A stretch of DNA of 64,000 nucleotides from Nocardioides sp. (GCF_050246775.1 NZ_JBFWVK010000001.1:854566-918565); one strand, 5' to 3'. Positions 180 through 14,254 are shown, counted from the first letter of the stretch. Numbers and translations are program-made. Notes: generated by a model from the sequence alone, not told the origin.

Positions 180-1352
180 TCAGGTGATCGTCTCGAACCG
201 GATTCCGGTCGCCTGGAGCCGGGCGGTGAGGTTCTCCCCCATCGCCACCGCCGTGGTCACCTGCCCGGAGGTCACGGGATTGGTGTCGTAGGCCAGGCAC
301 AGAGCCGACTCGGCCAGCATCTTGGCCGTCTCGGTGTAGCCCGGGTCTCCCCCGGAGACCTTGGTGTGCACGGTGCGTCCCTCGGACTCCCCGATGAAGT
401 CGACCGAGAACCAGGACTTCTTGCGTCGTGCCTCATCGGGCCCCTCCCCCTGGGGGACCCGCTTGAGCAGTGCCCGCCGCAGCGGTGGCACCTGCGCAGC
501 GGCGAACAGCCCGGCGACCGAGACGACCGCGCCCGCGGCGACGGGCAACCGGCGTACGCCGGCGAAGTGGGAGTAGCGGAACGACGGACCGTACGCCGCC
601 AGCGCGGCGCCGGAGCGCGCCACGACCTGCGGGTCGATGGTCGGCAGCGGCAGCAGCCAGAGCCCCAGGTCCGGGTCCTTGTGCGGCTTGCCGGAGACCG
701 CTCGTGAGGACCGCCCTTCGGGGCGCGGCTCGACCTTCAGCCGTTGGCGGAAGGTCTGCTGTCCCTGCTTGACCCTCGAGAAGGCCCCGAGCGCGGAGTG
801 GAAGGTGCCGCCCGAGAACGTGCCGCTGGCCCGGACCACACCACGCAGGGTGACCGGCCCGGTGGGGGCGAGGTGGGTGATGGCGTGCAGGGCGCCGAGG
901 TCGTGTGGGATGGAGTCGAACCCGCAGGCGTGCACCAGCCGGGCCCCCGAGGACACCGCGGTGGCGTGATGGGCCAGGTACATCCGGTCCACGAACTCCG
1001 GCTCCCCGGTCAGGTCGACGTAGTCCGTGCCGTGGGCCGCACAGGCGGCGACCAGCGGTTCGCCGTACTGCAGGTAGGGCCCGACCGTCGTGATCACCAC
1101 CCGGGATCGCGCCGCCACGGCGTCCAGGGTTGCCGGGTCGGTGGTGTCGGCGTGCAGCAGCTCCATGACCTCCAGCCGCGGATCGATGGCCGCCAGGGAG
1201 TTGCGAACCGCCTCGAGCTTGCTCGGCGTGCGGCCCGCGAGGGCCCAGCGGAGGTTGGCCGGGGCATGGCGGGCGAGGTACGCCGCGGTCAGGGCGCCGG
1301 TGAAGCCGGTCGCCCCGAAGACGACCAGGTCGAAGTCACGTTGCTTGCTCAT
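180..1352 (-). CDS. Saccharopine dehydrogenase-like / trans-acting enoyl reductase family NAD(P)-binding oxidoreductase
   Basis: MSKQRDFDLVVFGATGFTG Rossmann motif, TTVGPY, YVDLTGE, CGFDSIPHDLG, GDPGYTETAKML; true start taken at ATG 1352 inside a longer ORF. Confidence 0.85.
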   Translation of the reverse strand: MSKQRDFDLVVFGATGFTGALTAAYLARHAPANLRWALAGRTPSKLEAVRNSLAAIDPRLEVMELLHADTTDPATLDAVAARSRVVITTVGPYLQYGEPLVAACAAHGTDYVDLTGEPEFVDRMYLAHHATAVSSGARLVHACGFDSIPHDLGALHAITHLAPTGPVTLRGVVRASGTFSGGTFHSALGAFSRVKQGQQTFRQRLKVEPRPEGRSSRAVSGKPHKDPDLGLWLLPLPTIDPQVVARSGAALAAYGPSFRYSHFAGVRRLPVAAGAVVSVAGLFAAAQVPPLRRALLKRVPQGEGPDEARRKKSWFSVDFIGESEGRTVHTKVSGGDPGYTETAKMLAESALCLAYDTNPVTSGQVTTAVAMGENLTARLQATGIRFETIT

Positions 1353-1392
1353 GACCTGAGTCTCCCCCATGCACCGACGTAGGCTTGTTGCC

Positions 1393-1659
1393 ATGTGCCG
1401 CAACATCCGACCGCTGAACAACTTCGAGCCGCCAGCCACCGGTGACGAGGTCACGGCCGCTGCACTGCAATATGTGCGCAAGGTCAGTGGGACCGCCAAG
1501 CCGTCCCAGGCCAACCAGGCCGCCTTCGACCGGGCGGTGGCCGAGATCGCCCATGTCACCGCACACCTGCTCGACGACCTCGTCACGACGGCCCCGCCCA
1601 AGGACCGCGCCGTCGAGGCCGCGAAGGCTCGAGCCCGAGCCCAGGCGAGATACGCGTAG
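1393..1659 (+). CDS. DUF2277 family small protein
   Basis: MCRNIRPLNNFEPPAT.DEV.AAALQYVRKVSG signature. Confidence 0.8.
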   Translation: MCRNIRPLNNFEPPATGDEVTAAALQYVRKVSGTAKPSQANQAAFDRAVAEIAHVTAHLLDDLVTTAPPKDRAVEAAKARARAQARYA

Positions 1660-2501
1660 TGGTCCAGGCGAGCATCGAGGACGCCCTCGCCCTCATCGCG
1701 GACCGACCGCTGGTCGTCCTCACGGGCGCCGGGCTCTCCACGGACTCCGGCATCCCGGACTATCGCGGACCCAACGCGCCATCGCGCCGTCCCATGACCT
1801 ACCAGGAGTTCATGTCGGGTCCGCTGCCGCGGCAGCGCTACTGGGCGCGCAGCCACCTCGGCTGGGGTCGGATGCGGCGTGCCGACCCGAACGCCGGCCA
1901 CCGCTCGCTCGCGGAGCTCAGCGGCATCGACCTCCTCATCACCCAGAACGTCGACGGCCTGCACGAGCAGGCCGGCCAGCCCGAGCTCGTGGCGCTGCAC
2001 GGGCGCATCGCCGACGTCATCTGCATGACGTGTCGCACGAGCACGACGCGCGCCGCCCTCGAGCATCGCCTGGCCGAGCTCAACCCGTCGTACGCCGAGC
2101 GGCACCCCGAGGTCGCCGAGCGCCCCGACGGCGACGTGGAGCTCGACGACACCGCCGACTTCGTCGTCGCCGACTGCTCGGCCTGCGGGGGCATCCTGAA
2201 GCCTGATCTGGTGTTCTTCGGGGAGAACGTCCCCGCGCCCCGCGTCGAGCGCTGCTATGCAGCCGTCGACGCGCTGGCCGCCCGCGACGGCGTCCTGCTG
2301 GTGGTGGGGTCCTCGCTCACCGTGATGAGCGGGCTGCGGTTCCCCAGACGGGCCGCTCGCAACGGCACTCCGGTGGTGATCGTGAATCGGGGAGCCACCC
2401 GCGGCGACGAGCTGGCCGCCATCAAGCTGGAGGTGGGCTGCAGCGAGTTCCTCACCGTGCTGACCGCGAGCCGGTCGATCACCGCACCCGCCGCGATCTA
2501 G
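1659..2501 (+). CDS. NAD-dependent protein deacylase, sirtuin (Sir2 family, class II/SIRT4-like)
   Basis: GAGLSTDSGIPDYRG, YWARS..GW, PNAGH, ITQNVDGLH, LHG, CxxC...CxxC zinc site, LKPDLVFFGE, GSSL. Confidence 0.92.
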   Translation: MVQASIEDALALIADRPLVVLTGAGLSTDSGIPDYRGPNAPSRRPMTYQEFMSGPLPRQRYWARSHLGWGRMRRADPNAGHRSLAELSGIDLLITQNVDGLHEQAGQPELVALHGRIADVICMTCRTSTTRAALEHRLAELNPSYAERHPEVAERPDGDVELDDTADFVVADCSACGGILKPDLVFFGENVPAPRVERCYAAVDALAARDGVLLVVGSSLTVMSGLRFPRRAARNGTPVVIVNRGATRGDELAAIKLEVGCSEFLTVLTASRSITAPAAI

Positions 2502-2926
2502 CGCGTGTAGACACCTTCGGGCGTCTCCAGCTCGACCGGGCCGCCGTCGTCGGACAGCGTGATGGTCCGGTCCCCGAACCGGACGCGATGCTCGACGATG
2601 TCGACCCTGCGAGGCTCCTCCCCGTGCCGGCCGGCCCGCCACGAGCCCCTCCGGCCGTACCACCAGAGGGTCGCGTCGTCGTCCTCCACGAAGTAGTCCG
2701 TCGTGTAGTCCCCGCCCAGCCTCCAGGTCAACGCGGAGGCGTTGGTGCCGTCCATGGAATAGGTCTCGTCGACGTAGATCAGGACCAGCTCCCCACCCGG
2801 ACCGTCGAAGGGGATCGCGTCGCCGGGCACCATGCCCAGCCAGGTCCGGCCCGGCTCGTCAGGAGGCGGCGGCGTGGAGGAGCAGCCGGTCAGCAGGAGG
2901 ACGAGCAGGGCGACGGCCAGCTTCAC
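2498..2926 (-). CDS. Hypothetical lipoprotein
   Basis: N-terminal MKLAVALLVLLLTGC lipobox; no recognisable catalytic family. Confidence 0.6.
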   Translation of the reverse strand: MKLAVALLVLLLTGCSSTPPPPDEPGRTWLGMVPGDAIPFDGPGGELVLIYVDETYSMDGTNASALTWRLGGDYTTDYFVEDDDATLWWYGRRGSWRAGRHGEEPRRVDIVEHRVRFGDRTITLSDDGGPVELETPEGVYTR

Positions 2927-2977
2927 GACGCCATCATCGCAGGGAACCGCGCCGGGTCGCCCGGACGCGGTCGCGCC

Positions 2978-3664
2978 TCAGAGGCGGCGTACGAAGATGT
3001 GCTCAGCGGCCTCGGTGTCGATCTCGGCGGTCTCGCCGCCCGAACCGATCAGGACCCCCTCGGCCGTGCGCGCGATCGTGACGGTCTTGTCGGGCGTCGC
3101 ACCGACCCGTCGCAACGCACTCATCAGGGGCTCGTCCTTCTGCATCTCCTCGGAGATGCGGCGCACCAGGACCCGCGACTGCTCGCCCGTGGCAGCGGAG
3201 GCGAGCGACTCGACCCCGTCCATGAAGCGTTCGCCGACCTCATGGGCACCGAGCTCGTCGAGGCCCGGGATGGGGTTGCCGTAGGGCGACTCGGTGGGGT
3301 GGTCCAGGAGCTCGAGGAGTCGCCGCTCCACGGTCTCGGACATCACGTGCTCCCAGCGGCAGGCCTCCTCGTGCACCAGCTCCCAGTCCAGGCCGATCAC
3401 GTCGATGAGCAACCGTTCGGCGAGCCGGTGCTTGCGCATCACCCGGGTCGCGAGCCGATGGCCCTCCTCGGTGAGCTGCAGGTGGCGATCACCTTCGACG
3501 GTCAGCAGACCATCGCGCTCCATCCGCGCCACGGTCTGGCTCACGGTGGGTCCGCTCTGGTGCAGCCGCTCGGCGATGCGGGCGCGCAGCGGCGTGATGC
3601 CCTCCTCCACCAGCTCGTAGATGGTGCGCAGGTACATCTCGGTGGTGTCGATGAGATCGCTCAC
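2978..3664 (-). CDS. ideR: Iron-dependent repressor IdeR/DtxR family
   Basis: MSDLIDTTEMYLRTIYEL, RARIAERL.QSGPTVSQTVARMERDG, MRKHRLAERLL, VHEEACRWEHVMS, SPYGNPIPG. Confidence 0.93.
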   Translation of the reverse strand: MSDLIDTTEMYLRTIYELVEEGITPLRARIAERLHQSGPTVSQTVARMERDGLLTVEGDRHLQLTEEGHRLATRVMRKHRLAERLLIDVIGLDWELVHEEACRWEHVMSETVERRLLELLDHPTESPYGNPIPGLDELGAHEVGERFMDGVESLASAATGEQSRVLVRRISEEMQKDEPLMSALRRVGATPDKTVTIARTAEGVLIGSGGETAEIDTEAAEHIFVRRL

Positions 3665-5846: not shown

Positions 5847-7427
5847 ATGAACGCCATGTCGAATTTTAACGATCCAAAGTGGTGGCGCCAAGCGGTCGTC
5901 TACCAGATCTACATCCGCTCCTTCGCCGACGGCGACGGCCAGGGCCTGGGCGACATGGCCGGCATCACCGCGCGGCTTCCCCACCTGGCGGAGCTGGGCG
6001 TCGACGCGATCTGGCTCACGCCGTTCTACACCTCGCCGCAGCACGACCACGGCTACGACGTGGCCGACTACCTCGACGTGGATCCGCGATTCGGCACCCT
6101 GGACGACTTCGACACCATGCTGGGTGCCGCCCACGACCTGGGCATCAGAGTCATCGTGGACATCGTGCCCAACCACAGCTCCGACGAGCACGTCTGGTTC
6201 CAAGCCGCCCTTGAGGCAGCACCAGGCAGCGCCGAGCGCGCCCGCTACCTCTTCCGCGACGGCCGTGGGACCGACGGAGAGCTGCCTCCCAACAACTGGC
6301 AGTCCATCTTCGGCGGCCCGGCGTGGACCCGGGTGCCGGACGGACAGTGGTACCTGCACCTCTTCGACCGGACCCAGCCCGACTTCGACTGGCGCAACCC
6401 CGAGGTCGGCGACATGTTCGAGGACGTCCTGCGCTTCTGGCTCGACCGTGGCGTCGACGGGTTCCGGATCGACGTGGCGCACGGCCTGTTCAAGGAGGCC
6501 ACGCTGCGCGACCAGGTCATCACCGAGGTGCCCGAGCACAGCGCCGACTCGGCGATGGTCGAGCGCCAGCAGGCCGACGAGCCGATGTGGGACCAACCCG
6601 AGGTGCACGACGTCTACCGTCGCTGGCACAAGATCCTGGAGTCCTACCCGGGTGACCGGATGGCCGTCGCCGAGGCCTGGACCTCCACCGCCGCCTCCAT
6701 GGCCCGCTTCATCCGACCCGACGAGCTGCAGCAGACCTTCAACTTCAACTGGCTGCTGGCGCCCTGGTCGGCGGAGTCGTTCGCCGAGGTCATCACCGAC
6801 ACGCTGTCCCACGTGGCGATCGTCGGGGCCACCCCGACCTGGGTGCTCAGCAACCACGACGTCGTACGGCACGCCACTCGCTACGGCGGCGGGCCGGTCG
6901 GGGTCGCGCGCGCCCGCGCCGCGACCATGGCGATGCTCGCCCTGCCCGGCTCGGCGTACCTCTACCAGGGCGAGGAGCTCGGCCTGGAGCAGGTCGAGGT
7001 TCCGCAGGAGTTCTGGCAGGATCCCAGTGCCCTGACCACAGGCGTCGAGGGCCGCGACGGCTGCCGGGTGCCGATCCCGTGGAGCGGCCAGGTGCCTCCC
7101 TTCGGGTTCGGCCCCGGCAGCGGCCAGCCGTGGCTTCCACAGCCGCCGCACTGGGACGAGCTCACCGTGGAGGCGCAGGCAGCCGACCCGAGCTCGACCC
7201 TGTCGTTCTATCGACGCGCGCTCGCCGTACGCCGCGAAGCCGCCTTGCGGGCCGGTGACGAGGTCACGATCATCTCGAGCGACGACGATGTCCTGGTCTT
7301 CAGCCGCGGCGACCTGGTGTGCCATGTCAACTGCGGCTCCACCCCGGTCACCGTGCCGGCCGGTGAGGTGCTGCTGTGCAGCGGCGACATCCCAGGAGCA
7401 CCCGACACGGCCACCTGGCTGCGCTGA
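5847..7427 (+). CDS. GH13 alpha-glucosidase / oligo-1,6-glucosidase family
   Basis: WWRQAVVYQIYIRSFAD, GYDVADY, DIVPNHSS, GFRIDVAH (catalytic D), VAEAW, SNHDVVR, YQGEELG, RDGCRVPIPW. Confidence 0.92.
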   Translation: MNAMSNFNDPKWWRQAVVYQIYIRSFADGDGQGLGDMAGITARLPHLAELGVDAIWLTPFYTSPQHDHGYDVADYLDVDPRFGTLDDFDTMLGAAHDLGIRVIVDIVPNHSSDEHVWFQAALEAAPGSAERARYLFRDGRGTDGELPPNNWQSIFGGPAWTRVPDGQWYLHLFDRTQPDFDWRNPEVGDMFEDVLRFWLDRGVDGFRIDVAHGLFKEATLRDQVITEVPEHSADSAMVERQQADEPMWDQPEVHDVYRRWHKILESYPGDRMAVAEAWTSTAASMARFIRPDELQQTFNFNWLLAPWSAESFAEVITDTLSHVAIVGATPTWVLSNHDVVRHATRYGGGPVGVARARAATMAMLALPGSAYLYQGEELGLEQVEVPQEFWQDPSALTTGVEGRDGCRVPIPWSGQVPPFGFGPGSGQPWLPQPPHWDELTVEAQAADPSSTLSFYRRALAVRREAALRAGDEVTIISSDDDVLVFSRGDLVCHVNCGSTPVTVPAGEVLLCSGDIPGAPDTATWLR

Positions 7428-7880: not shown

Positions 7881-9517
7881 CGGACCTGCCCCTGCGTCGC
7901 GGCCTCGGCCAGCTCCTGGTCACTGAGCAGGGTGGTGCGCAACGGCACCTCCTTGATCAGCAGGACGCAGACCAGGGCGACCAGGGCGAAGGGTGTCACC
8001 ACCAGGAACACGTGGCCGGTGGCGACCCCGAAGGCTTCCTCGAAGACCGCGCGGACCGGGCCCGGCAGCGTGCTGAGATCGGGGATCGAGTGGCTGCTCT
8101 GGCTGTCGACCGGCACCCCGAGGGCGGCCAGGCCGCTCGACACCTTCGCTGCGACCTGGTGGCTCAGCACCGCACCGAGCGCGGACACACCGAGGGCGCC
8201 ACCCATCGATCGGAAGAAGGCGACCAGGGCACTGGCTGACCCCATGTCTGCCTGGGCCGCGTTGTTCTGCACCGCCAGGACCAGGTTCTGCATCGTGGCC
8301 CCCAGCCCCAGTCCGAGCACGGCCATGAACAGCCCGACGACGGCCAGGTTGGTGTGGGCGTCGATGGTGCTCAGCAGCACCATGCCGACGATCACCAGCA
8401 CCATGCCGCTGACCAGGAACTTCTTCCATCGGCCGGTGTCGGAGATGATCCGCCCGGTGACGATGCTGGAGACCAGCAGGCCGCCGACCATGGCGATCGA
8501 CATCAGGCCGGCGTGGGTCGGGCTCATGCCGCGGGCGAGCTGGAAGTACTGGCTCAGGTAGACCGTGGAGCCGAACATCGACAGCCCGATCATGATCGAC
8601 GCGGCGGTCGCCAGGCTCGTCGTACGGTCCTTGAAGAGGCGCAGCGGGATGATCGGCTCGCGGGCCACGTAGCCCTCGACGTACACGGTGGCGGCGAGGA
8701 GCACGATCCCGAGCCCGACCAGTGCAGCACTGACGGGTGAGACCCACGCGAAGTCGTTGCCGGCCAGCGAGACCCAGATGAGCAGGATCGAGACGCCACT
8801 CATCAGCAGGGTGGCGCCCAGGTAGTCGATGTGCACCTCACGCCGGATCACCGGGAGGTGCAGGGTCTTCTGGAGCACCCCGAAGGCTAGTACGGCGACA
8901 GGGATGCCCACGAAGAAGCACCAGCGCCAGCCGAGGCCCGGGGTGTCCACGATCAGGCCGCCGATGAGCGGTCCGCTGACGGTGGCCAGAGCGAAGACCG
9001 CGCCGAGGTAGCCGGAGTAGCGGCCTCGCTCGCGCGGTGTCACCATGCTGGCGATGACGACCTGGACCAGGGCGGTGAGGCCGCCGACGCCGAGGCCCTG
9101 GATGGCTCGGGCGCCGATCAGCACGCCCATCGAGCTGGCGAAGCCGGCGATGAGAGAGCCGACGACATAGATCGCGAGGGCCGTCTGCACCAGGAGCTTC
9201 TTGCTGAAGAGGTCCGCGAGCTTGCCCCAGATGGGCGTGGTGGCGGTCATGGTCAGCAGGGTGGCGACGATCACCCAGGTGTAGCCGGTCTGGCTGCCGT
9301 GGAGATCGGCGACGATGCTGGGCAGCGCGTTGGACACGACGGTGCTCGACAGCATGGCGACGAAGAGGGCGAGCAGCAGCCCCGAGAGGGCCTCGAGGAT
9401 CTCGCGGTGGGACATCGGCGCCCCGAGGCTCGGTGGTGTCTGGGCGACGCCGGCTCGGGAGGTGGGCCCAGGTGTGGGCACGGTGGTGGTCACGGAACTC
9501 CAATCAGGTGGTGCCAC
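7877..9517 (-). CDS. MFS multidrug efflux permease (DHA2, 14-TM)
   Basis: LFVAMLSSTVV..ALP, WGKLADLFSKK, RAIQGLG.GG, PRERGRY.G, GPLIGG, WRWCFF; start may be ATG 9415. Confidence 0.9.
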   Translation of the reverse strand: MAPPDWSSVTTTVPTPGPTSRAGVAQTPPSLGAPMSHREILEALSGLLLALFVAMLSSTVVSNALPSIVADLHGSQTGYTWVIVATLLTMTATTPIWGKLADLFSKKLLVQTALAIYVVGSLIAGFASSMGVLIGARAIQGLGVGGLTALVQVVIASMVTPRERGRYSGYLGAVFALATVSGPLIGGLIVDTPGLGWRWCFFVGIPVAVLAFGVLQKTLHLPVIRREVHIDYLGATLLMSGVSILLIWVSLAGNDFAWVSPVSAALVGLGIVLLAATVYVEGYVAREPIIPLRLFKDRTTSLATAASIMIGLSMFGSTVYLSQYFQLARGMSPTHAGLMSIAMVGGLLVSSIVTGRIISDTGRWKKFLVSGMVLVIVGMVLLSTIDAHTNLAVVGLFMAVLGLGLGATMQNLVLAVQNNAAQADMGSASALVAFFRSMGGALGVSALGAVLSHQVAAKVSSGLAALGVPVDSQSSHSIPDLSTLPGPVRAVFEEAFGVATGHVFLVVTPFALVALVCVLLIKEVPLRTTLLSDQELAEAATQGQVR

Positions 9518-9533
9518 GAGAGTAGAACTTATT

Positions 9534-9550
9534 AGTTGTTAGTTGCAACT
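9534..9550. promoter_or_regulatory. Candidate MarR operator upstream of the MFS-marR operon
   Basis: AT-rich AGTTG-N7-CAACT containing the perfect palindrome AGTTGCAACT (9541-9550), just upstream of the MFS start. Confidence 0.5.
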
Positions 9551-9573
9551 TCTTGGTTCGCCTGAATATTCCG

Positions 9574-9602
9574 TTGCCCGCGACCGGGAAGCGTCGTACT
9601 CT
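9574..9602 (+). promoter_or_regulatory. Sigma-A type promoter for an orphan + strand transcript
   Basis: TTGCCC (9574-9579)-N17-TACTCT (9597-9602); predicted TSS about 9609. Confidence 0.6.
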
Positions 9603-9634
9603 CGAAGGACACGTGAGAGGAGGTGGTCCGTTCA

Positions 9635-9673
9635 ATGATTTCGTTGTGGACTCGTGAGGTGGCTGCCCGCTAA
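9635..9673 (+). CDS. Candidate 12-aa small ORF MISLWTREVAAR
   Basis: ATG at 9635 preceded by GGAGGT (9619-9624), TAA at 9671-9673; too short for the ORF track. Confidence 0.45.
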   Translation: MISLWTREVAAR

Positions 9674-9886
9674 GCAGCTCCACTGCCGACAGGTTCCCTG
9701 CGCAGCGTTCGTTAGCCGCTCAGCGAATTCCAGGCAGTCACCCGACCCGCAGGCGATCCGGAGTCAGTCCGCCGGATGCGTGCGCAGGTCCTCCCCGAGG
9801 AGGAAACCGCGCATCCGCCTGCGGGTCGCTCGCATTTCCCGTTGAGTCGTGCCCCGCCGACCCCGGCTGCCAGGCGGCGGAGTCAT

Positions 9887-9927
9887 CGTGGTTGATCGCA
9901 GTCACCTGGTGACTGCGATCAACCACG
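9887..9927. terminator. Perfect 20-bp inverted repeat, probable bidirectional terminator
   Basis: CGTGGTTGATCGCAGTCACC-T-GGTGACTGCGATCAACCACG, between the orphan + transcript and the end of the convergent ABC operon. Confidence 0.75.
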
Positions 9928-9957
9928 CTGTGACTGCGCGCAGCACGGCGGCCGGGG

Positions 9958-11943
9958 TCAGGCGACAGCGGCAGCGGTGAACTGCGCGTTGTACAAGCGG
10001 GCGTAGGCGCCTCCCGCAGCCAGCAGCGAGTCGTGGGTGCCCTGCTCCACGATGGCCCCGGACTCCATGACCAGGATCAGGTCCGCGTCGCGGATGGTCG
10101 AGAGCCGGTGAGCGATGACGAAGGACGTCCGGTCGGTGCGCAGTGCCGCCATCGCATGCTGCAACAGCAACTCGGTGCGGGTGTCCACCGAGGACGTCGC
10201 CTCATCGAGGATCAGCAGCGCGGGGTCGCTGAGGAAGGCGCGTGCGATCGTGATCAGCTGCCGCTCCCCCGCACTGATGTTGCCGCCCTCCTCATCGATC
10301 ACCGTGTCGTAGCCCTCGGGCAGCGAGTGCACGAACCGGTCCACGAAGGTCGCCCGGGCAGCCTCCATGATCTGCTCCTCGCTCGCCCCTGGCGCGCCAT
10401 ACGCGATGTTGTCGCGAATGGTGCCCTCGAACAGCCAGGTGTCCTGCAGCACCATGCCGATCTGGCCGCGCAGCTCCGAGCGGGGCATCGCCGAGATGTC
10501 CGTCCCGTCGAGCGTGATCCGCCCGCCATCGAGCTCGTAGAAGCGCATGACCAGGTTGACCAAGGTGGTCTTGCCCGCCCCGGTCGGTCCGACGATCGCC
10601 ACGGTCTGGCCAGGGCTGGCCACCAGCGACAGGTCCTGGATCAGGGGTACGTCGGGCTCGTAGCTGAAGGCGACATGCTCGAACGCCACCCGCCCCTCGC
10701 GCCGCGCAGGTTTCGTCATGGACACCGGAGCACGCTCGGTGACCACCGAGCCGACCTCCTCCTCGGCGTCGAGCAGCTCGAAGACGCGCTCGGCGGAGGC
10801 GACCCCCGACTGGAGCAGGTTGGCCATCGACGCCACCTGGGTCAGCGGCTGGGTGAACTGTCGGGTGTACTGGATGAAGGCCTGGACGTCGCCGAGGCTC
10901 ATCGTGCCGCTGGCCACGCGCAGCCCGCCGAGGACGGCGATCACGACGTAGTTGAGGTTCCCGATGAACATCATGATCGGCATGATCAGCCCGGACACGA
11001 ACTGGGCACCGAAGGACGCCTGGTAGAGCTCGTCGTTCTCCGTCGCGAAGACCTCCTCGACCTCGCGCTGGCGTCCGAACACCTTGACCAGGCTGTGGCC
11101 GGAGAACGACTCCTCGATGTGGCCGTTGAGCGTGCCGGTGCGGCGCCACTGGGAGACGAACAGGCCCTGGGACCGCTTCATCACCTGGCTCGCCACAACC
11201 ATGGTGATCGGCACCGACACGAGGGCGACGAGCGCCAGCGTGGGGCTGATCCAGATCATCATGCCCAGCACCGCGACCACGGTCAGCAGTGAGGTGAGCA
11301 ACTGGCTCATGGTCTGCTGCAGGGACTGGCTGATGTTGTCGATGTCGTTGGTGACCCGCGAGAGCAGCTCACCACGCGGCTGACGGTCGAAGTAGCCCAG
11401 GGGCAGCCGGTTGATCTTGTCCTCGACCTCTGAGCGCATCCGGAACACCGTGCCCTGCACGACGTCGTTGAGCAGGTAGCCCTGCAGCCACGCCAGGAGC
11501 GAGGCCACCACGTAGACCGCCAGCACCAGAAGCAGGACCGACCCGAGCGCCCCGAAGTCCACCCCCTGACCCGGCACGAAGTCGATGTTGGACAGCAGGT
11601 CGGCCCGGGAGTCGTCACCGTCGGCGCGTAGCCCGGCGATGGCCTGCTCCTTGGAGACCCCGTCAGGGATGTTGGAGCCGATGAAGCCGGCGAAGATGAG
11701 GTTGGTGGCGTGCCCCAGGATCTTCGGTCCGAACGACGTCAGCACGACCGAGACGATGGCGAGGGCCACGACGGCCATGGCTTTGTAACGCTCCGGCGCC
11801 ATCCGGGCGACGAGCCGCTTGGCCGAGGGCCCGAAGCTCATCGCCTTCTGCGCGACCATGCCGCCGCCGAACGGACCTCGCCCGGGCCCGGGGCCGCTCT
11901 GGATGCGCTCGGTCTGCTTGAGCTGTCCGCTGGTCGAGCTCAT
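9958..11943 (-). CDS. ABC exporter fused TMD-NBD subunit (heterodimer partner 2)
   Basis: GPTGAGKTT, signature ISAGERQ, ILDEATSSVD, FVIAHRLSTI. Confidence 0.93.
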   Translation of the reverse strand: MSSTSGQLKQTERIQSGPGPGRGPFGGGMVAQKAMSFGPSAKRLVARMAPERYKAMAVVALAIVSVVLTSFGPKILGHATNLIFAGFIGSNIPDGVSKEQAIAGLRADGDDSRADLLSNIDFVPGQGVDFGALGSVLLLVLAVYVVASLLAWLQGYLLNDVVQGTVFRMRSEVEDKINRLPLGYFDRQPRGELLSRVTNDIDNISQSLQQTMSQLLTSLLTVVAVLGMMIWISPTLALVALVSVPITMVVASQVMKRSQGLFVSQWRRTGTLNGHIEESFSGHSLVKVFGRQREVEEVFATENDELYQASFGAQFVSGLIMPIMMFIGNLNYVVIAVLGGLRVASGTMSLGDVQAFIQYTRQFTQPLTQVASMANLLQSGVASAERVFELLDAEEEVGSVVTERAPVSMTKPARREGRVAFEHVAFSYEPDVPLIQDLSLVASPGQTVAIVGPTGAGKTTLVNLVMRFYELDGGRITLDGTDISAMPRSELRGQIGMVLQDTWLFEGTIRDNIAYGAPGASEEQIMEAARATFVDRFVHSLPEGYDTVIDEEGGNISAGERQLITIARAFLSDPALLILDEATSSVDTRTELLLQHAMAALRTDRTSFVIAHRLSTIRDADLILVMESGAIVEQGTHDSLLAAGGAYARLYNAQFTAAAVA

Positions 11944-13673
11944 GCCGCGGCCTCCGCACTCTGCTGGGACGCCACGATCTCCTGGTACGTCGGATTGCCG
12001 GCCAGGAGATCGTCATGCGTGCCGCGCCCGACAACGACGCCGTCCTCCAGGACCAGGATCAGGTCGGCGTCGCGGATGGTGGACACTCGCTGCGCCACGA
12101 TCACGACCGTCGAGTCCCGGGTGACCGGTTTCAAGGCTGCCCGCAGCCGCGAGTCGGTGGCCAGGTCGAGCGCCGAGAACGAGTCGTCGAAGAGGTAGAT
12201 CCCCGGCTTGCGGATCAGCGCCCGGGCGATGGCCAGGCGCTGGCGCTGACCTCCCGAGAAGTTGGTCCCGCCCTGCGCGACCGGTGCGTCGAGCCCTTCG
12301 GCGAGGGTGGCCACGAAGTCCTTGGCCTGGGCCACTTCGAGGGCCTCCCACATCTCCTGTTCGCTGGCGTGTGGCTTGCCGTAGGCCAGGTTGCTGCGGA
12401 TCGTCCCGCTGAACAGGAACGCCCGCTGAGGCACCAGCCCGATGCTGCCCCACAGGACATCCGGGTCCAGGGCGCGCACATCGACCCCGCCCACCCTCAC
12501 CACGCCGCTGGTCGCGTCGAACAGCCGGGGCACCAGGTTGACCAGGGTGGACTTTCCTGAGCCGGTGGAACCGATGACCGCCACCGTCTGTCCCGGGGTG
12601 GCCTGGAAGCTGATCTGGTGGAGCACGGGGGCCTCGGCGCCGGGGTAGGCGTAGTCGACCTCGTCGAGCTCCAGGGTGCCGTGGCTCCTGAGCTCGGTCA
12701 CCGGCTCCAGCGGCGGGGGGACCGACGACTCCGTCTGGAGGACCTCCATGATCCGATCGGCGCTGACGGCCGACCGCGGGATCATCATCAACATGAAGGT
12801 CGACATCATCACGGCCATCATGATCTGCATCAGGTAGGACAGGAACGCCGTGAGGGCCCCGACCTGCATCTGGCCGCTGTCGACCCGGTGGCCGCCGAAC
12901 CAGAGCACCGCGATGCCGGCCACGTTCACCACCAGCATCACCGCGGGGAACATGGTGGCCAGCCAGCGACCGGTCCTGGTCGCGACCACGGTGAGGTCGT
13001 CGTTGGCAGTCGCGAAGCGGGCGGTCTCGTGCGGTTCACGGACGAAGGCCCGCACGACCCGGATGCCGGTGATCTGCTCGCGCAGCACCCGGTTGACCTC
13101 GTCGACCCGGGTCTGCATCAGACGGAAGCCGGGCACCATCTGGCGCACGATGAGCCCCACGACCAGGAAGAGCACCGGGACCAACACGGCCAGCAGCCAC
13201 GACAGGCCCAGGTCCTCACGCATGGCCATGACGATGCCGCCGATCATCATGATCGGTGCCGCGATCATCATGGTGCAGGTCATCAGCACCAGCATCTGCA
13301 CCTGCTGGACGTCGTTGGTGTTGCGGGTGATCAGGCTGGGCGCGCCGAACTGCTGGAGCTCGCGTTGGGAGAAGGAGCCGACGCGGTGGAACAGGTCTCG
13401 GCGTACGTCGCGGCCGAACGCCATCGCCGTGCGGGCACCGAACCACACAGCAGCCACCGAGCACCCGATCTGGACCAGGGAGATGGCGAGCATGATCGCA
13501 CCGAGCCGGATGATCTCGCCGGTGTCTCCCTGGGCCACCCCGTTGTCGATGATGTCGGCGTTGAGGCTGGGTAGGTAAAGCACCGCCGCGGTGCCCACGA
13601 ACTGGAGGGCGACGACGGCGGCGAGCCAGGCCTTGTACGGCGCCAGCGAGGCGCGGAGCAACGTGATCAACAT
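11940..13673 (-). CDS. ABC exporter fused TMD-NBD subunit (heterodimer partner 1, degenerate site)
   Basis: GSTGSGKST, FSGGQRQR, degenerate Walker B LFDDSFSALD and switch VAQR, typical of TM287/TM288-like heterodimers. Confidence 0.93.
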   Translation of the reverse strand: MLITLLRASLAPYKAWLAAVVALQFVGTAAVLYLPSLNADIIDNGVAQGDTGEIIRLGAIMLAISLVQIGCSVAAVWFGARTAMAFGRDVRRDLFHRVGSFSQRELQQFGAPSLITRNTNDVQQVQMLVLMTCTMMIAAPIMMIGGIVMAMREDLGLSWLLAVLVPVLFLVVGLIVRQMVPGFRLMQTRVDEVNRVLREQITGIRVVRAFVREPHETARFATANDDLTVVATRTGRWLATMFPAVMLVVNVAGIAVLWFGGHRVDSGQMQVGALTAFLSYLMQIMMAVMMSTFMLMMIPRSAVSADRIMEVLQTESSVPPPLEPVTELRSHGTLELDEVDYAYPGAEAPVLHQISFQATPGQTVAVIGSTGSGKSTLVNLVPRLFDATSGVVRVGGVDVRALDPDVLWGSIGLVPQRAFLFSGTIRSNLAYGKPHASEQEMWEALEVAQAKDFVATLAEGLDAPVAQGGTNFSGGQRQRLAIARALIRKPGIYLFDDSFSALDLATDSRLRAALKPVTRDSTVVIVAQRVSTIRDADLILVLEDGVVVGRGTHDDLLAGNPTYQEIVASQQSAEAAA

Positions 13674-14254
13674 GAGGAGTCCTTCGTGCAGGTGCCGTGC
13701 AGGACCACGTCGACGATCTCGTCGGGGGTCATCAGGCGCTGTTCGGAGATGTGGGGGTGGCTGCCGGAGAAGGTGAGCAGGCGCAGCGCCCGGACGACGT
13801 CCTCGACCGGCACCCTGAAGGCTGCCGCGTCAGGCTCGATGAGACGCACCATGCGCAGGTGGGAGCGTCGACGCCACTCGTCGGCCTCCTCGCCCTTGTG
13901 ATGACGAGGCGGGCCCTGCATGGCCATCACGGTCATGAGGTCGAAGATCCCGACGAAGCGCTGCTGCATGGCCTCGGTCAGGGCGACGAGTCGCTCCCGC
14001 AGCGGCAGGGTCGCGTCGACCGACTCCAGCTCGGCCAGGAAGTCCGCAGGGTCGAAGGCGTGGGCCAGCGCGGCGGCGAAGAGGTCGTCCTTGGTCGCGA
14101 AGACCCGGAAGATCGTGCCTTCGGCGATCCCGGCCGCCTCGGCGATCTGGCGCGTCGTCGTCTCCCGCCCATGCTCGCGCAGCAGCGGCAGGGCGGCCTC
14201 GACGATCGCCTGCTTGCGCTCGCCGGGAGGCATCGGGGTCGCTCGGGTACGCAC
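13667..14254 (-). CDS. TetR family transcriptional regulator
   Basis: TTTRQIAEAAGIAEGTIFRVFATKDDL HTH. Confidence 0.9.
   Translation of the reverse strand: MRTRATPMPPGERKQAIVEAALPLLREHGRETTTRQIAEAAGIAEGTIFRVFATKDDLFAAALAHAFDPADFLAELESVDATLPLRERLVALTEAMQQRFVGIFDLMTVMAMQGPPRHHKGEEADEWRRRSHLRMVRLIEPDAAAFRVPVEDVVRALRLLTFSGSHPHISEQRLMTPDEIVDVVLHGTCTKDSSC

Follow-up and report, generated by a model that had tools for sequence, protein, structure and literature searches.

The small RNA (sRNA) family Ms_IGR-5 is said to have been first reported by Li et al. in 2013 (RNA 19:74), in Mycobacterium smegmatis and with Hfq co-purification. It is catalogued in Rfam as RF02471 ("Actinobacteria sRNA"). Transcripts of it are known from Streptomyces lividans TK24 (PMC8079986) and from S. 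avermitilis, where two sRNA transcription units match Rfam and Ms_IGR-5 is one of them (PMC8780764), and both M. abscessus and M. smegmatis have yielded ribosome footprints on the RNA (PMC4974804). No function is given for it in these three papers, and none was found in literature searches with gene names, conserved blocks and peptide motifs, which did not include the founding paper; a conserved open reading frame (ORF) is mentioned neither in Rfam nor in the same three papers. In the present study we have analysed a 64,000-nucleotide stretch of Nocardioides DNA (the window, from whose first letter all coordinates are counted), in which a first-pass annotation made from the sequence alone had noticed an orphan transcription unit with a strong Shine-Dalgarno (SD) sequence and a 12-codon ORF. 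This unit is the host copy of Ms_IGR-5, an already known Rfam family, and nothing essential sets the copy apart. As regards the family as a whole, we propose that ribosome loading probably switches the fold of the RNA.

Family identity, promoter and extent of the transcript

The region was scanned against Rfam 15, in which the gathering score of RF02471 is 45 bits. The match, at 99.3 bits (E 6e-23), covers 9609-9834 on the plus strand and the full model (1-184 of 184), and it is the sole one of its kind in the 64-kb window. The first-pass annotation knew of no named RNA family for the unit and had set a strong Rfam match as the outcome that speaks against its reading; Ms_IGR-5, at twice the gathering score, is such a match. 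The window copy has in common with the family the 5' ACAC start, the SD sequence, the GUGAGGUGGCUG block, the GCGAAUUCC..GCAGUCACCC box and the 3' hairpin. Like other members it is intergenic, probably transcribed independently, and found in an actinobacterial host, here a Nocardioidaceae-like one, whose adjacent ATP-binding cassette (ABC) protein shares about 80% identity with Nocardioides, Marmoricola and Nocardioidaceae sequences. It differs from the model in a longer 3' hairpin, with a 37-nt insert versus 9, and in its neighbouring genes.

About 190 homologues were compared in total. A first set was obtained with an exact pattern taken from the unpaired 3' box (GCGAATTCCNNGCAGTCACCC, a 21-mer) and comprises at least 120 species genomes, from Mycobacterium, Mycolicibacterium, Nocardia, Kitasatospora, Nocardioides, Pseudonocardia and Actinophytocola together with many metagenome-assembled genomes. 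The 5' pattern GGAGGTG-N28-42-GTGAGGTGGCTG gave a second set of at least 120 metagenome contigs, about ten of which are chance matches.

The promoter that had been read in the window, TTGCCC and TACTCT separated by a 17-nt spacer (9574-9579 and 9597-9602), is present and kept across these homologues. The -10 element TANNNT stands at -13 to -8 in every acidobacterial upstream region and in 98% of the 145 that belong to class A, the -35 element TTGxC stands at -36 to -32 in 71-84% of class-A sequences per conserved position, and in the 145 class-A regions an A at +1 opens the conserved ACAC motif. The conservation supports a housekeeping-type promoter that would start the RNA at A9609, in agreement with the start site predicted near 9609 by the first reading. 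In M. abscessus the transcription start site was mapped 2 nt upstream of the Rfam match (PMC4974804). A generic scan of 9000-10500 for sigma-70 promoters and terminators picked up neither the sRNA promoter nor the 3' hairpin, and the two had to be recognised from their conservation in homologues.

The unit measures about 230 nt and not about 320 nt, as had been supposed, since similarity to other genomes and contigs ends near 9839. One contig of 240 nt (X18) covers exactly 9601-9839, and a genomic contig of 1.4 kb from another organism (X9) is similar solely over 9587-9839 and diverges on both sides. The conserved promoter and RNA contigs from related organisms, including two metatranscriptome contigs that cover 9609-9813 (X48) and 9630-9808 (X49), would fit an independent transcript of about 170-230 nt. 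The RNA has a long G+C hairpin of its own at the 3' end, closed by a 13-bp perfect stem (9743-9755/9816-9828; inverted repeat I4), and this stem recurs in homologues with different sequences (GGCCCCCGAGC, GACCCGCAGGC and GGCCCGTGGGC). The 20-bp inverted repeat at 9887-9927, which had been taken for the terminator of the unit, is real, with 23-nt arms at 9884-9906 and 9908-9930, but it lies outside every homology and contig boundary and is not supported as the terminator of this RNA. It forms the core of an almost perfect 106-nt composite hairpin (9856-9961, -81.4 kcal/mol, z-score -10.8) and, because this hairpin abuts the stop codon of the ABC genes outside the conserved block, we have assigned the repeat to the 3' end of the convergent ABC operon.

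Ribosome engagement, reading frame and core helices

The 3' tail of 16S ribosomal RNA (rRNA) reads GGAUCACCUCCUUUCU. The strong SD sequence GGAGGTGG at 9619-9626, which is present as first described, is part of a longer stretch that can form 15 contiguous pairs, counting G-U, with the textbook sequence of this tail; in homologues the number is 15-16 in nearly all of 155 unique 5' domains and 13 in one. The stretch overlaps the 5' arm of a hairpin around the start codon (H1) and ends within one base of a helix that we call P1, so that a 30S subunit docked there would melt H1 and crowd P1. A pairing of the 3' box with helix 34 of 16S rRNA, drawn by hand, reached just 6 bp and was dropped.

There is strong published evidence that ribosomes sit on Ms_IGR-5 RNA in M. 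abscessus. Its transcript there, ncMab10731, has 70.3 reads per kilobase per million (RPKM) in RNA-seq and 3736.6 RPKM in ribosome profiling (PMC4974804, Dataset S2). The corresponding values are 10836 and 865 for 6C, 1794 and 490 for the signal recognition particle RNA, and 68793 and 153 for mpr4 (PMC4974804). The ratio of profiling to RNA-seq calculated from this table is thus about 53 for Ms_IGR-5 and below 0.3 for the three other RNAs.

The 12-codon ORF described at 9635-9673 (MISLWTREVAAR followed by TAA) is a real and conserved feature. Twelve codons are kept in 113 of the 116 complete genome homologues, with TTG (91), ATG (21) or GTG (2) as start codon located 8-10 nt past GGAGGTG and TAG (105) or TAA (9) as stop codon, and across homologues the stop switches between TAG, TAA and TGA. 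In all classes the ORF has 11-18 codons, is in frame and ends in E-V-A-x-x-stop, with the exception of two sequences. When the 155 unique 5' domains were read in the three frames, an SD-proximal start and a stop at the fixed place were found in 153 for frame 0, in two for frame +1 and in none for frame +2. The start and the stop codon are located in variable loops and change type yet stay in frame, which argues that the status of an ORF is selected. Two homologues (L057 and L120) have AUC/AUU or CUG in place of a canonical start codon, and they may represent either rare starts or lost translation. Two further frames, one of three codons (AUG GAC AUG UGA in mycobacteria) and one of 63 codons in the +1 frame (9654-9845), were considered and are not conserved.

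The encoded residues, in contrast with the frame, follow the pairing of the RNA. The xGG ACx codons form the 3' arm of H1, N'GU G supplies the 3' strand of P1, and GGUGGCUGxx is the 5' strand of a second helix, the long-range P2; residues 5-11 are explained by the nucleotides of these three elements, and the conserved residues coincide with nucleotides that are invariant at third codon positions too. GAG GUG GCU has no synonymous change in the about 116 homologues obtained with a pattern that left this block free, four of which carry a non-synonymous change of GCU to ACU. Residue 7 is C, R, S or G and tracks the leader base with which its codon pairs, and residues 2-5 are free. The act of ribosome loading or translation, rather than the peptide, therefore appears to be selected. 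The peptide of the window has 12 residues, three of them charged, and is not hydrophobic, and homologous peptides such as MSSNHSEVAAA are hydrophilic. The analogy with type I toxin messenger RNAs (mRNAs) that the first-pass annotation had drawn finds no support in a 12-residue, non-hydrophobic peptide whose residues change freely as pairing dictates. Its micropeptide and dual-function suggestions fare no better: a functional micropeptide is not needed for conserved residues that RNA nucleotides explain, and a dual-function sRNA with a peptide under its own selection is at odds with conserved residues that coincide with H1, P1 and P2 and with a residue 7 that follows P1 covariation. The comparison of homologues that it had called for, on ORF conservation and base-pair covariation, found both, the former in the frame count above and the latter in P1 and P2.

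The 230-nt RNA has a minimum free energy (MFE) of -110.7 kcal/mol with a z-score of -4.43, none of 200 shuffled sequences being as good, and the fold contains H1 and P2. In P2 the segment GGUGGCUG-x1-x2 (9658-9667) pairs with y2-y1-CAG-nn-ACC (9733-9742). Paired cells amount to 95.4% in set A2, a value reached by none of 500 shuffles, while slid registers give 19-68%. Two pairs show compensatory changes: x1-y1 (13-20) is CG 25, UG 6, UA 2, AU 1 and GC 1 times and is never unpaired, and x2-y2 is CG 10, GC 7, UA 5, AU 1 and other 12 times. P2 is also found in the MFE folds of four diverse homologues. In P1 the leader CAC-N (9610-9613) pairs with N'-GUG (9653-9656). CAC and GUG are nearly invariant in set A3, and the fourth pair, N-N', is GC 13, AU 9, CG 5, GU 4, UA 4 and other 13 times, so that all four Watson-Crick types are found; its covariation score was reached in none of 500 shuffles, and two acidobacterial types have U-A and C-G. 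In the invariant block GUG-A-GGUGGCUG a hinge A thus joins the 3' strand of P1 to the 5' strand of P2. The Rfam consensus structure of Ms_IGR-5 contains neither P1 nor P2.

The start-codon hairpin drawn in the first reading (GTCC 9626-9629/GGAC 9648-9651 and CAATGA 9633-9638/TCGTTG 9641-9646) is present and corresponds to H1, whose conserved 4-bp core GUCC/GGAC shows G-U and A-U variants; for the inner pairs no fixed register was found across homologues. GAGGTGG does occur twice, in the SD region and inside the ORF. The hairpin with the stop codon in its loop (H2, GCTGC 9662-9666/GCAGC 9674-9678) exists but competes with the better supported P2, with which it shares its 5' strand, and it is a possible local alternative. 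Such a hairpin, with 5 or more of the 9 bases of the P2 strand paired, can form in 98.7% of class-A sequences, and its energy barely beats that of shuffled controls (-14.35 versus -12.75). The AAUUCC box has no pairing partner in the window MFE fold or in the consensus structure of Rfam. As the 3' hairpin (9743-9828) shares no bases with P2 or H2, the RNA has no terminator/antiterminator logic.

Proposed mechanism and rival explanations

The full explanation that we consider best, and fairly likely to be right, is that Ms_IGR-5 is a stand-alone RNA of about 230 nt with a ribosome-loading module whose translation unzips P1 and P2. The first 60 nt bring together the 15-nt complement of the 16S tail, a weak H1 that holds the AUG, and the 12-codon ORF. 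In P2, GGUGGCUGCC (codons 8-11) is paired with GGCAGUCACC, which adjoins the 3' hairpin, and the stop codon is one codon past the P2 strand. In the mechanism that we propose, a 30S subunit that docks on the long SD stretch would open H1 and the upper part of P1; once translating, the ribosome would unzip P1 and P2 and then stop. The RNA would in this way toggle between a closed, compact form without a ribosome and a ribosome-opened form in which the AAUUCC box and the CAGUCACC strand are free. Possible outputs would be target pairing, an altered stability of the RNA itself, or ribosome holding. The idea of the first-pass annotation that translation may switch RNA folding is therefore plausible, as ORF codons 7-11 form strands of the covarying P1 and P2 and a relative has high footprints, even though the helices differ from those that had been drawn.

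Several points weigh against this mechanism. The output of the switch is pure inference. The search pattern of each set of homologues fixed one P2 strand; the invariant pairs are thus partly there by construction and the flanking pairs alone are free tests. Moreover, the P1 and P2 counts were made on concatenated-strand pseudo-alignments, the covariation of H1 is modest (14 of 500 shuffles reach its score), and the GAGGUGG strand of one acidobacterial type seems to have another pairing partner, CCACCUC. The footprints could be those of 30S subunits on the long SD stretch without productive translation. For the window copy the RNA evidence consists of three or four related contigs (89-99% identical), two of them from metatranscriptomes and two of unrecorded run type. 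Finally, the 3' hairpin of the window copy has no U tract, hence its 3' end could come from processing, or some read-through may occur.

Among the rival explanations, the one that survives best is a regulator acting on the ribosome itself. In this case the RNA would bind the 16S 3' tail, or the 30S or 70S particle, to titrate, park or protect it, for example in slow growth or stress; the ORF would serve for run-off or recycling, and the second GAGGUGG, 8 nt before the stop, could tether a terminating ribosome. A contiguous complementarity of 15-16 nt is indeed far beyond the need of initiation, the spacing between the second GAGGUGG and the stop is fixed in all classes, and both the profiling ratio of about 53 in M. 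abscessus and the great abundance of homologues in soil metatranscriptomes fit such a role. We nevertheless hold it to be unlikely: the second GAGGUGG is already accounted for as a P2 strand and, at 70 RPKM in M. abscessus, Ms_IGR-5 is far scarcer than ribosomes, which makes bulk titration improbable.

An ordinary non-coding, base-pairing sRNA, with the ORF as a structural by-product and the footprints as an SD-like artefact, would agree with the treatment of Ms_IGR-5 as non-coding in Rfam and in the papers that mention the family, with a peptide conservation no greater than the helices dictate, and with an unpaired AAUUCC box that could be a seed. Against it, start and stop codons lie in variable loops outside the conserved strands and are in frame in 153 of 155 cases while switching type, length variants of 11-18 codons are all in frame across two phyla, and the A/U-rich loops avoid in-frame stop codons. 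We regard it as quite unlikely. That Ms_IGR-5 is a functional micropeptide gene, or a dual-function sRNA with an active peptide, is highly improbable: the conserved ORF, the strong SD sequence, the ribosome footprints and the E-V-A-x-x C-terminus would be expected of it, but GAG GUG GCU is conserved at third positions too and forms strands of P1 and P2, residue 7 varies with the leader base, residues 2-5 are free and the length runs from 11 to 18. The first reading, of a 320-nt unit ending at the downstream inverted repeat and resembling either a leader attenuator or the mRNA of a type I toxin, is largely refuted and hardly credible any longer, because, real and very stable as the repeat is and even if a U-poor 3' hairpin might allow read-through, conservation and RNA contigs end near 9839, the repeat abuts the convergent ABC stop, the peptide, of 12 residues, is not hydrophobic and no gene follows.

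Locus, distant relatives and comparison with known systems

The sRNA lies in a gap of 440 bp. On one side is a major facilitator superfamily (MFS) efflux gene of the DHA2 type, which starts near 9517, and on the other are two ABC exporter genes, which end with the stop codon at 9958-9960; all three are on the minus strand. No plus-strand gene was found downstream, the next gene being the convergent ABC exporter, and the first-pass view of a stand-alone unit with its own promoter is supported. The features of the locus are collected in Table 1.

Table 1. Features of the Ms_IGR-5 locus in the window.
Feature	Position	Strand	Evidence
-35 box TTGCCC	9574-9579	+	Read from sequence; class-A homologues
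-10 box TACTCT	9597-9602	+	6 nt before start A9609; TANNNT conserved in homologues
Ms_IGR-5 sRNA (RF02471), about 230 nt	9609-9838	+	cmscan, contigs, fold z-score
P1 5' strand CACG	9610-9613	+	Pairs with 9653-9656; covariation
Extended Shine-Dalgarno GAGAGGAGGTGGTCC	9615-9629	+	15 contiguous pairs (with G-U) to 16S 3' tail
Hairpin H1 around start codon	9625-9652	+	Stems 9625-9630/9647-9652 (outer) and 9633-9637/9642-9646 (inner); in MFE fold
ORF MISLWTREVAAR + TAA, 12 codons	9635-9673	+	Frame and length conservation
P1 3' strand CGTG, codons 7-8	9653-9656	+	Covariation
P2 5' strand GGTGGCTGCC, codons 8-11, contains second GAGGTGG	9658-9667	+	Covariation, MFE folds
Alternative local hairpin H2 (GCTGC/GCAGC, stop codon in loop)	9662-9678	+	Competes with P2
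Conserved unpaired box GCGAATTCCA (AAUUCC; AAUCCC in Acidobacteriota)	9723-9732	+	Rfam consensus, MFE fold
P2 3' strand GGCAGTCACC	9733-9742	+	Pair counts
3' hairpin, 13 perfect bp at base, then U-poor tail CTCGCATTTCC	9743-9828	+	Inverted-repeat search
106-nt composite hairpin, outside sRNA, 3' end of convergent ABC operon	9856-9961	-	z-score -10.8; contains inverted repeat 9884-9930

The neighbours of the sRNA change with the lineage. In mycobacteria the order is pabC (Rv0812-like), sRNA and a convergent Rv0813c-like gene, and the next downstream gene is convergent in most of the mycobacterial loci tabulated; the Nocardia sRNA follows cydDC, hutI or ubiX is the neighbour in Acidobacteriota, and the window copy is flanked by MFS and ABC genes. 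No functional theme was found among the neighbour genes and, as these are lineage-specific, the sRNA is to be seen as a stand-alone gene.

Around the sRNA of the window some further observations were made. The divergent MFS promoter region (9517-9556) has on the minus strand the hexamer TACTCT (9524-9519), identical to the -10 hexamer of the sRNA and 72 nt away from it; a tandem TAGTTG repeat and the palindrome AGTTGCAACT (9533-9550) near the MFS promoter look like a repressor operator. A TetR-family gene (13667-14254, minus strand) is directly upstream of and co-oriented with both ABC exporter genes (11940-13673 and 9958-11943), which suggests an efflux operon under TetR control. The 9-mer GCAGTCACC is found in the P2 3' strand (9734-9742) and in the downstream hairpin, which also holds its reverse complement GGTGACTGC; its three occurrences on either strand of the 64 kb are all within 200 nt. 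On its own this number is not significant, as 14 of 100 shuffles gave at least three matches.

Relatives of Ms_IGR-5 were found beyond Actinobacteria. Two types of low G+C content in the metagenome set share its plan: a TTGAC-17-TAnnnT promoter, an ACAC start, the SD sequence AAAGGAGGUGAUC, an ORF of 11 or 16-18 codons ending in EVAxx, and a box AAUCCC..CAG..ACC directly before a U-tailed terminator. They score 20.6-28.7 bits with the Rfam Ms_IGR-5 model, under its gathering score. Type 1 lies downstream of hutI, whose product is 86-91% identical to proteins of Pyrinomonadaceae (Acidobacteriota). The origin of type 2 is indicated by a locus (L154) that adjoins an Acido-Lenti-1 RNA (RF01687, 60 bits; 7316-7361, minus strand), convergent and just past the terminator of the Ms_IGR-5-like RNA. 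Divergent loci of this kind include L147 (1776-1990), L121, L143, L154 and about 40 others. No usable consensus emerged when MAFFT alignments of the acidobacterial types were folded with RNAalifold. In type-C loci (L143, L154 and others) a segment just upstream of AAUCCC, GACCACCUC, is complementary to the SD sequence GAGGUGGUC over 9 bp and to the second GAGGUGG over 7 bp, and other acidobacterial sequences have CCUCCUUUUCAG or CCUUCUUUCC, for which a pairing of 10-12 bp with leader and SD is possible. These complements may be built-in anti-SD elements, of which none was found in the actinobacterial form. A truncated candidate (L128, 6076-6176) has ACAC, AAAGGAGGUGGUC and a 13-codon ORF ending in EVAER; its contig is of 50% G+C, its ProA is just 58% identical to proteins of several phyla, Planctomycetota and Nitrospinota among others, and it may point to a third lineage.

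In soil metatranscriptomes type 1 contigs have a depth of 900-3600 within the RNA, against 0 for the genes that flank it, and for a mycobacterial homologue the depth is likewise confined to the RNA. A broader proposal, which we advance tentatively and consider possible though rather doubtful, is that Ms_IGR-5 is one branch of a wider and very abundant class of ribosome-actuated sRNAs, present at least in Actinomycetota and Acidobacteriota, in which an anti-anti-SD of 15-16 nt would load a ribosome on a throw-away ORF of 11-18 codons that serves solely to unzip P1 and P2, and the RNA would report or exploit translational capacity.

The locus itself is ordinary, one more copy of a catalogued sRNA. 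It belongs, however, to a family that is conserved phylum-wide, has a divergent form in Acidobacteriota and is among the most visible RNAs of soil metatranscriptomes. If ribosome loading does switch the RNA, the family would offer a simple, widespread way to sense or use translational status, including in mycobacteria and antibiotic-producing actinomycetes; if the wider class is real, it would be the stand-alone, trans-acting counterpart of leader-peptide sensors.

With leader-peptide attenuators acting in trans, such as rnTrpL/peTrpL of Sinorhizobium, Ms_IGR-5 has in common a short 5' ORF with an SD sequence in a small structured RNA with a terminator and, as proposed here, a ribosome whose position decides which helices form. 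Unlike them it has no regulated gene downstream on the same strand, the next gene being convergent in the window and in most of the mycobacterial loci, and no run of regulatory codons, and its terminator takes no part in alternative pairing. Dual-function sRNAs (SgrS/SgrT, RNAIII/hld and SR1/SR1P) also combine an sRNA with an ORF, but their peptides are conserved, active and encoded apart from the pairing region, whereas Ms_IGR-5 has an unconstrained peptide and an ORF that overlaps its core helices. The mRNAs of type I toxins resemble it in their small ORF and in a start codon or SD sequence held in a hairpin; Ms_IGR-5 differs in encoding no hydrophobic toxin of about 20-60 residues and in being single-copy, phylum-wide and placed beside housekeeping genes. 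Judged from the sequences compared, its design is an unusual one: an ORF that is conserved but would be throw-away, together with an SD sequence of excessive length, is fused to the core helices of the RNA.

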